Shown here one piece after another: positions 59,677 to 60,222 of a DNA stretch of 64,000 nt (positions within the stretch are counted from its first letter, which is position 1; every line of letters begins with the position of its first letter). The stretch lies in the sequence record ON506924. One strand, written 5' to 3'. A program made the translations under genes and the position numbers. The stretch comes from Escherichia phage vB_EcoM_SCS4. The notes under the pieces were generated by a model. The model did not search any database and was not told the DNA's origin. It saw only the letters and a list, made by a program, of their open reading frames with translations.

Positions 59677-59817
59677 TTACCATACTAGTGAATGTAGTGC
59701 CATAATAACATCAGAAATGAAAAGCACGACTTGAATTAATCCGAACATTATTCCGTAATATAATGCTATCAATAAAATAGCAAGGGCTAATGAATAGCCC
59801 AAGATTTTCTTAATCAT
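59677..59817 (-). CDS. Small hydrophobic peptide (46 aa)
   Basis: Manual translation MIKKILGYSLALAILLIALYYGIMFGLIQVVLFISDVIMALHSLVW; start overlaps the upstream stop. Confidence 0.4.
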   Translation of the reverse strand: MIKKILGYSLALAILLIALYYGIMFGLIQVVLFISDVIMALHSLVW

Positions 59818-59968
59818 TAGTAGATAACAACACAAATGTTAAATATGCACACATACCCTGGGCTAAAGCTTGCGAAAACACACTGCTAGCATCAATACAA
59901 ATAGTTAAAACACATGCTACTATCCAACAAATAAATGAAATAACTCCTAATAATTTTGCGATATTCAT
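59810..59968 (-). CDS. ac: ac-like small membrane protein (52 aa)
   Basis: Start at the internal ATG preceded by GAGGAGAA RBS; hydrophobic with a conserved FCW...ASSVF.QA.AQG pattern. Confidence 0.55.
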   Translation of the reverse strand: MNIAKLLGVISFICWIVACVLTICIDASSVFSQALAQGMCAYLTFVLLSTND

Positions 59969-59978
59969 AATATTCTCC

Positions 59979-60134
59979 TCAACTATTTTTAGAACCAATG
60001 TACGCGAATAATGATAAAATCGCTAATACGCCCTGAGCTGATGCTTGCAAAAATACTGAAGTTTCTCCAGTTATTACTGTTCCGATGCATAAAAAGAACC
60101 AACAGAAAAAGGCTATACCGTGAACAAATTTCAT
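59979..60134 (-). CDS. Second ac-like small membrane protein (51 aa), tandem paralogue
   Basis: Manual translation MKFVHGIAFFCWFFLCIGTVITGETSVFLQASAQGVLAILSLFAYIGSKNS aligns with the adjacent ac-like ORF. Confidence 0.5.
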   Translation of the reverse strand: MKFVHGIAFFCWFFLCIGTVITGETSVFLQASAQGVLAILSLFAYIGSKNS

Positions 60135-60141
60135 NTTTTCC

Positions 60142-60222
60142 TCACTNGTGTCCGAAGNCGCCNTTGNTTTTAANNTTNTTACGATANAANTNNNTCANNN
60201 NNTNNTTGTGGAANTTACTCAT
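60142..60222 (-). CDS. stp: Stp peptide (26 aa), activator of the host anticodon nuclease system
   Basis: Translation MSNFHN...[15 protein letters not shown]; ATG overlaps the ndd stop; lies in an N-dense stretch so several residues are undetermined. Confidence 0.65.
   Translation of the reverse strand: MSXFHXXXXXXXYRXXXKXXGXFGHX

Follow-up and report, generated by a model that had tools for sequence, protein, structure and literature searches.

The locus considered here raises two linked questions: why a record of a T4-like phage gives so many of its bases as N across one very short gene, stp, and whether the two small hydrophobic genes beside it form a genuine pair. It lies within the 64,000-nucleotide stretch of Escherichia phage vB_EcoM_SCS4 (ON506924) that was analysed here as a whole and is referred to below as the window. 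In T4, the N-terminal ~18 residues of Stp bind and inhibit the type IC restriction enzymes EcoprrI and EcoR124I, and in prr+ hosts this releases the anticodon nuclease PrrC, whose target is tRNA-Lys (PMC3014915). A first-pass annotation of the window, made from its letters, had proposed that the Ns could mark population heterogeneity at a locus under host selection or simply a stretch that is hard to sequence, and had raised the concern that the neighboring gene duplication might be an assembly artefact.

The gene block and the identity of stp

The window is part of a Tequatrovirus (T4-like) genome whose closest relative is ECML-134, the top match among the 743 phage records that matched a 2.2-kb query around the locus. 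A closer relative was sought by way of the 52.1 haplotype and the gp52 protein of the window, and none was found; the IMG/VR contigs with this 52.1 haplotype are without acA, and the gp52 protein has an identical copy in 738 blocks of the assembly collection. The genes of the block all lie on the minus strand. The gene for the nucleoid disruption protein, ndd (60222-60680, 152 aa), occupies the position of T4 ndd and matches Pfam PF06591 Phage_T4_Ndd (E 1.4e-95) and phrog_1102. It is followed by stp (60142-60222, 26 codons, with 20 of 81 bases given as N), and then by two ac genes, acA (59979-60134) and acB (59810-59968), placed between stp and 52.1. The last of these (59677-59817) had been described on first reading as a 46-aa hydrophobic ORF after the ac-like pair; it is present, and encodes a 46-aa predicted membrane peptide equivalent to T4 gp52.1 (Pfam PF24129 DUF7396, E 4.8e-22; phrog_3595). 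The block is flanked by gene 52 (58344-59672), which encodes the 442-aa medium subunit of topoisomerase II. This is an ordinary, already known T4-like early gene arrangement and offers no novelty. In Aplg8, ndd (locus positions 1723-2235) is annotated with an 18-codon N-terminal extension; T4 and ECML-134 are annotated without it.

The stp ORF runs from ATG to TGA, and base 60222 belongs both to its ATG and to the stop codon of ndd (TAATG), an arrangement also found in T4; the overlap noted in the first-pass annotation is thus seen, and amounts to one base. The same annotation had quoted the letters of a 26-codon Stp-like peptide. The ORF is there, but the quoted residues do not stand, since N occurs in 15 of the 26 codons and the peptide reads MSxFHxxxxxxxYRxxxKxxGxFGHx (11/26 readable); residues N3, N6, F12, N15, N16, L17, T19, K20, V22, and Q26 of the earlier version had been taken over from T4 Stp. 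Where bases of the ORF and the adjoining spacer can be read, 66 of 67 equal the Aplg8/T4-type stp. With X at the ambiguous codons, the window peptide scored 12.9 bits (E 0.13) against Pfam PF08133 Nuclease_act, for which the curated cut-off is 25 bits, while the T4-type peptide scored 75.3 bits against the same model and also matched phrog_6763. The T4-type peptide agrees with all readable window residues save at position 25, where T4 has Arg and the window His. Within the N-terminal 18-residue core, the readable M1, S2, F4, H5, Y13, R14, and K18 all agree, and the other 11 codons contain N. Because the peptide of readable residues falls below the Pfam cut-off, the identification rests on DNA identity and gene order. 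On this basis, with the ORF lying between ndd and ac, the name stp that it had been given on first reading appears to be right for 60142-60222. The gene is unannotated in ECML-134 (locus positions 1636-1722), in Aplg8, and in many other records, and this routine omission means that damage to stp passes unnoticed.

Among 24 related loci, which include other T-even genera and one siphovirus copy, the N-terminal 18 residues of Stp are the same save for occasional changes at positions 5, 8, 12, 13, 15, and 17. Codon 25 is CGC in all 24 save three in which it is replaced (two fusion alleles and the Kagunavirus copy). Eight further loci with the same gp52 all have an ordinary stp. The fusion alleles are deletions, found in SHFML-11 (KX130861; locus positions 663-768) and in ENA ERZ24909966 (from 2108), in which stp codon 18 is joined in frame to an acA-type tail; they retain exactly the N-terminal 18 residues reported to bear Stp activity. 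In ECP52 (ON782582; locus positions 696-801), the loop of a hairpin at the 3' end of stp is inverted from TTCG to CGAA with the stem kept, which changes GVFGRQ in Stp to GVRRRQ and, from its sequence, has the look of template switching at a quasi-palindrome. The stp of RB51 (locus positions 761-838) has 25 codons, and the L17F variant of Stp recurs in RB51, UTI-E2, ECML-363, and one IMG/VR contig. A siphovirus homolog is present in Kagunavirus PDP21P8 (OZ035783; locus positions 701-771), with 83% DNA identity over 71 nt, and there are weaker matches in phages BEK6 and BubbaBully; the gene thus has a range that extends beyond the T-even phages.

A pair of ac paralogs

Two paralogous ORFs of about 51 aa with a common motif had been reported downstream of stp, and this description holds. 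The 51-aa product of acA, the extra ac paralog, and the 52-aa membrane peptide encoded by acB, the ortholog of T4 ac, have the motif FxCW...SVFxQAxAQG in common and are 43% identical over 40 aa, with 58% DNA identity. Both are hydrophobic (GRAVY 1.15 for acA and 1.42 for acB), with hydrophobic 15-aa windows in each, and both cover profile positions 1-50 of phrog_2501 (E 4.9e-26 for acA and 3.7e-25 for acB). In related loci, the homologous gene is assigned to Pfam PF26944 Phage_T4_Ac.

It had been proposed to look for both copies in related phages. The tandem acA-acB pair is covered in 50 of the 501 phage records matching the pair, and is present in ECML-134 and Aplg8. The window acA is identical to that of both these phages and has matches in 92 phage records. 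The finding of the same tandem pair in about 50 records refutes the suggestion that the duplication is an assembly artefact. T4 and most of its relatives have the acB type alone, and RB51 has the acA type as its single ac, with 40 of 51 residues identical to those of the window acA. Given the low identity of the two copies (43% in protein, 58% in DNA) and the occurrence of each type alone elsewhere, the pair is one of old paralogs and not the product of a recent duplication. The tandem duplication noted on first reading is therefore real as a pair of paralogs, but not as a recent event. If the segment lying between two ribosome-binding stretches that resemble each other, TGAGGAAAATATG and TGAGGAGAATATTATG, is taken out of the two-copy arrangement, that of T4 results. 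Genomes with both ac genes are already on deposit, and in several of them, among which are Aplg8, ESh29, and vB_Eco_Geo, both copies are annotated as acridine resistance genes. In T4, ac confers acriflavine sensitivity on infection (bioRxiv 10.1101/2025.06.30.662393), and it has been suggested that Ac blocks the AcrAB-TolC efflux pump (bioRxiv 10.1101/2025.06.30.662393; PMC13250531).

Where the ambiguous bases fall and what may have caused them

About a quarter of the bases over 60135-60215 had been described as N, far more densely than elsewhere. The count bears this out: 21 of the 67 Ns in the window fall within 60135-60214, or 26% of 80 bases, and the second-densest 80-base stretch in the window has 5. 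When 67 Ns were placed at random 5000 times, the mean maximum was 2.2 per 80 bases, and it never exceeded 5. The run occupies the 87-nt gap (60135-60221) between acA and ndd as annotated in ECML-134, and this gap, at 24% N, is the densest of all, followed by a 25-nt gap with 16%. Within the run the Ns become denser toward higher coordinates (Spearman rho -0.56 for gap size against order, p 0.011); acA has none. The part of stp richest in N is codons 6-12, which lie 25-45 nt from the stp hairpin, and 10 of the 20 Ns in stp are at third codon positions (p 0.09, not significant). The bases inferred at the N positions of the run are G 8, A 6, C 4, and T 3, and 18 of the 21 positions are invariant among Tequatrovirus relatives. 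In an stp alignment of the window with 16 relatives, including Dhakavirus, Gaprivervirus, and the Kagunavirus copy, an allele departs from the T4 type at 7 of the 21 N positions at most, and every divergent one has further departures at 5-19 positions where the window gives a clean T4-type base.

Across the window as a whole, 53 of the 67 Ns fall in the 5.9% that lies outside the annotated CDS of ECML-134 (binomial p 3e-52), and with the stp run left out the same is true of 32 of 46 (p 5e-29). Ns are found in non-CDS DNA throughout the record and are not specific to stp; many larger non-coding gaps hold none. Window positions 1-64000 correspond to positions 102784-166783 of ECML-134 (NC_025449) with the offset staying at 102783 throughout. 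Between the two there are 1280 substitutions but no indels; T4 and Aplg8 each have about 200 indel positions in the same comparison. A constant offset without indels suggests a reference-guided consensus or a sibling record and, if the consensus was reference-guided, some of the readable bases may have been copied from the reference. The end of the window coincides exactly with the last base of the ECML-134 record. The 1280 substitutions are patchy and are mostly alleles also present in T4 or Aplg8, and the Ns are almost confined to tracts in which the window and ECML-134 diverge: of the non-CDS bases, 52% lie in mismatch-free tracts of 500 nt or longer, yet these tracts hold just 6 of the 67 Ns. 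Of the 46 Ns that are not part of the stp run, 13 lie within 10 nt of a T4 or Aplg8 indel site, against a background of 3.2%; no such indel lies within 10 nt of the Ns of the stp run.

Ns are enriched at G:C pairs (57% vs. 36%). No enrichment was found window-wide at sites that vary among relatives (11% vs. 7%, p 0.21), and the 14 Ns inside genes are spread over the three codon positions as 5/3/6, by a hand count from ORF coordinates, with no bias. The idea that the Ns are natural polymorphic sites across the window was rejected on these two grounds. In pseT.3, Ns at 30853, 30856, and 30859 occupy consecutive third codon positions; no other N cluster shows a codon-phase pattern, and the bases at these sites are G, C, and G in each of the three relatives.

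The 3' end of stp (codons 21-26) is predicted by folding to form the hairpin GGCGUC-UUCG-GACGCC (60147-60162, minus strand), which in the window reads GGCGNCTTCGGACACN. Its predicted energy is -10.0 kcal/mol for the consensus (z -4.3) and -4.6 kcal/mol with the G-to-A change of the window. This change, at 60149, is the sole unambiguous difference from the relatives; it turns CGC into CAC (60148-60150), giving R25H, breaks a pair in the hairpin stem, and lies two bases from an N. An R25H allele was not found in IMG/VR (0 hits), nor was a full-length exact match to the variant found in the phage collection, in which the best full-length matches are all mismatched at this base. R25H probably arose as an error within this low-quality stretch, and the call is unreliable and should not be trusted. 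Were it real, it would be expected from T4 to be of little consequence, as residue 25 lies in the C-terminal tail; the last 8 codons of T4 stp can be deleted with both activities only moderately reduced (PMC3014915). On the plus strand, the hairpin is followed by TTTGGTTTTA, a T-rich tail, and fits a simple intrinsic-terminator pattern, and at least one relative, vB_EcoM_G50, has an annotated terminator under stp. Besides that at the stp 3' end, N clusters at 9060-9071, 17594-17597, and 58176-58178 lie within strong hairpins (-8.6 to -18 kcal/mol). The N-bearing intergenic hairpins are GGGCTTCGGCCC at 9053-9077, GGGGACC-TTTC-GGTCCCC at 17579-17606 (-17 kcal/mol), and GGGAGAGCC-AAGG-CTCTCCC at 58155-58200 (-18 kcal/mol). 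Over the whole window, local folding energy did not separate N-bearing from N-free non-coding positions (Mann-Whitney p 0.86).

From the cause of the Ns to the bases beneath them, we infer that the run is probably an artefact of the record overlying an ordinary T4-type stp. Base calls would have been left unresolved when the consensus was built, apparently in an ECML-134-like coordinate frame, and would remain in the 87-nt stretch that gene callers, which miss an ORF as short as stp, take as non-coding. The Ns of the window in general look like unresolved consensus calls of this kind, in "non-coding" stretches of the tracts that differ from the ECML-134-like frame. Of the two causes put forward on first reading, the distribution of the Ns thus favors a stretch that failed to resolve in sequencing or consensus building. 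Against an artefact, the excess at third codon positions (p 0.09) and the overlap with residues 4-14 might resemble real variation, although neither is significant, and the stp gap is denser in N than any other while many larger gaps are free of N. A stable C(UUCG)G-type hairpin at the stp 3' end could have stopped or compressed sequencing, with the plus-direction read losing quality from there onward. The energy of the consensus hairpin (-10 kcal/mol, z -4.3), the start of the Ns at the hairpin and their increase toward higher coordinates, the position of the sole miscall-like substitution in the stem, and the three other clusters in hairpins of -8.6 to -18 kcal/mol would all fit. Most N clusters, however, are without a strong hairpin, and folding energy fails to separate N-bearing from N-free positions, which makes this an unlikely cause in its own right; it is better taken as a partial mechanism within an artefact of the record. 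As a general cause of the Ns, hairpins were rejected, with only 4 of about 13 clusters in strong hairpins and no overall association (p 0.86).

Another explanation keeps a single real genotype that the record misrepresents: the phage would be structurally unlike the ECML-134-like frame at this point, through an indel in stp, an SHFML-11-like fusion, or a replaced segment, and reads forced onto the frame would give conflicting calls and hence N. The absence of indels from ECML-134 despite 1280 substitutions, the near-confinement of the Ns to diverging tracts, and the 13 of 46 non-stp Ns within 10 nt of a T4 or Aplg8 indel are in keeping with this, as is the existence of natural variants of the locus (the SHFML-11 and ENA contig fusions, the presence or absence of acA, the 25-codon stp of RB51). 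Yet single shifts of 1-60 nt fail to reproduce the N pattern (best-over-shifts permutation p 0.35-0.62), deletion breakpoints of the SHFML-11 or T4 type predict trouble at the stp 3' end and in acA and not at codons 6-12, and acA is free of N while the Ns of the stp run have no T4 or Aplg8 indel within 10 nt, so this account is distinctly improbable. A superimposed indel or frameshift of 1-60 nt in either direction did no better than permuted N labels (p 0.35-0.62), and an apparent fit at shift +12 (p 0.001) was lost on correction for 60 tests.

True heterogeneity of the stock at stp, such as growth on a type IC/PrrC host might bring about, with N entered wherever there was no majority base, is very improbable. 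The run does coincide with stp, its densest codons (6-12) fall within residues 4-14, where the suppressor (loss-of-activation) mutations of stp are concentrated (PMC3014915), and there is the mild excess at third positions (10/20, p 0.09). However, 20 variable sites in 81 nt would demand a second haplotype about 25% diverged, and even the most divergent of the natural alleles depart from the T4 type at 7 of the 21 N positions at most, with another 10-19 departures at positions where the window base is cleanly T4-type. Moreover, 18 of the 21 N positions are invariant among Tequatrovirus relatives, low-frequency independent point mutants would leave the majority call standing, and like Ns are spread through non-coding DNA record-wide. 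Selection against stp is known only in pnk- (pseT) or rnl- phages (PMC3014915). In the window, pseT, encoding polynucleotide kinase/phosphatase (29096-30004, minus strand; tblastn to residues 1-302 of T4 PseT, 98% identity, no gaps), rnlA, encoding RNA ligase 1 (31735-32859, minus strand; tblastn to residues 1-375 of T4 RnlA, 98.9% identity, no gaps), and rnlB are all intact, so nothing selects for the loss of stp; such selection was rejected as a source of the Ns. A mixture of two natural stp alleles was likewise rejected, as it explains at most 7 of the 21 N positions and is contradicted by 5-19 clean positions, and a diversity-generating retroelement (DGR) or other templated mutagenesis was excluded, there being no second stp-like copy in the window to serve as a template and no specificity of the Ns for A. 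Least probable of all, and only barely credible, is real hypervariability of the Stp core (codons 6-12), with a pool of variants kept by conflict with type IC/PrrC hosts. If true, it would be a first case of a T-even phage diversifying an anti-restriction peptide at the level of the population.

Function, meaning, and comparison with known phages

By analogy with T4, the block would act early in infection. Ndd would disrupt the host nucleoid, and the N-terminal part of Stp would bind the type IC complex and so block DNA restriction. In a prr+ host, Stp would free PrrC, tRNA-Lys would be cut, and PseT and RnlA, which in T4 repair the tRNA-Lys cut by PrrC (PMC3014915), would restore it. The Ac and 52.1 peptides would insert in the inner membrane.

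The locus carries little biological weight, as stp, ac, 52.1, and ndd are textbook T4 genes. The lesson is one of data quality: the Ns in this record most likely mark unresolved non-coding stretches and not hotspots. If they did represent real diversity of the Stp core, an anti-restriction peptide would be under diversifying pressure; the evidence points the other way. What had been observed on first reading, the N run, the ORFs, and the overlap, has held up, apart from the quoted peptide letters. As to its interpretation, the identity of stp and the reality of the ac paralogs were supported; heterogeneity under host selection was not, given sites invariant in relatives, no fitting allele, intact repair genes, and like Ns scattered record-wide, and the fear of an assembly artefact behind the duplication proved unfounded.

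Hairpins with a C(UUCG)G tetraloop are a feature of T4 transcripts. The window has two of them, at stp codons 21-26 and, as GGGCUUCGGCCC, at 9053-9077; that of stp lies inside coding sequence, whereas those of T4 transcripts lie between genes. The window stp shares with T4 stp (NP_049878; PF08133; phrog_6763) its position, the overlap of its ATG with the ndd stop, and its length of 26 codons. Only a single readable base sets it apart from T4-type alleles, while 15 of its 26 codons cannot be read. T4 has one copy of ac (NP_049877; phrog_2501; PF26944) and the window has two; acB adjoins 52.1 and has one extra residue in comparison to T4 Ac, and acA belongs to the same PHROG family. The closest counterpart is the locus of ECML-134 (NC_025449 / JX128259, 162456-163463), which is the same as that of the window in gene content and spacing, but in which stp, though unannotated, is clean and wild-type where that of the window carries Ns.
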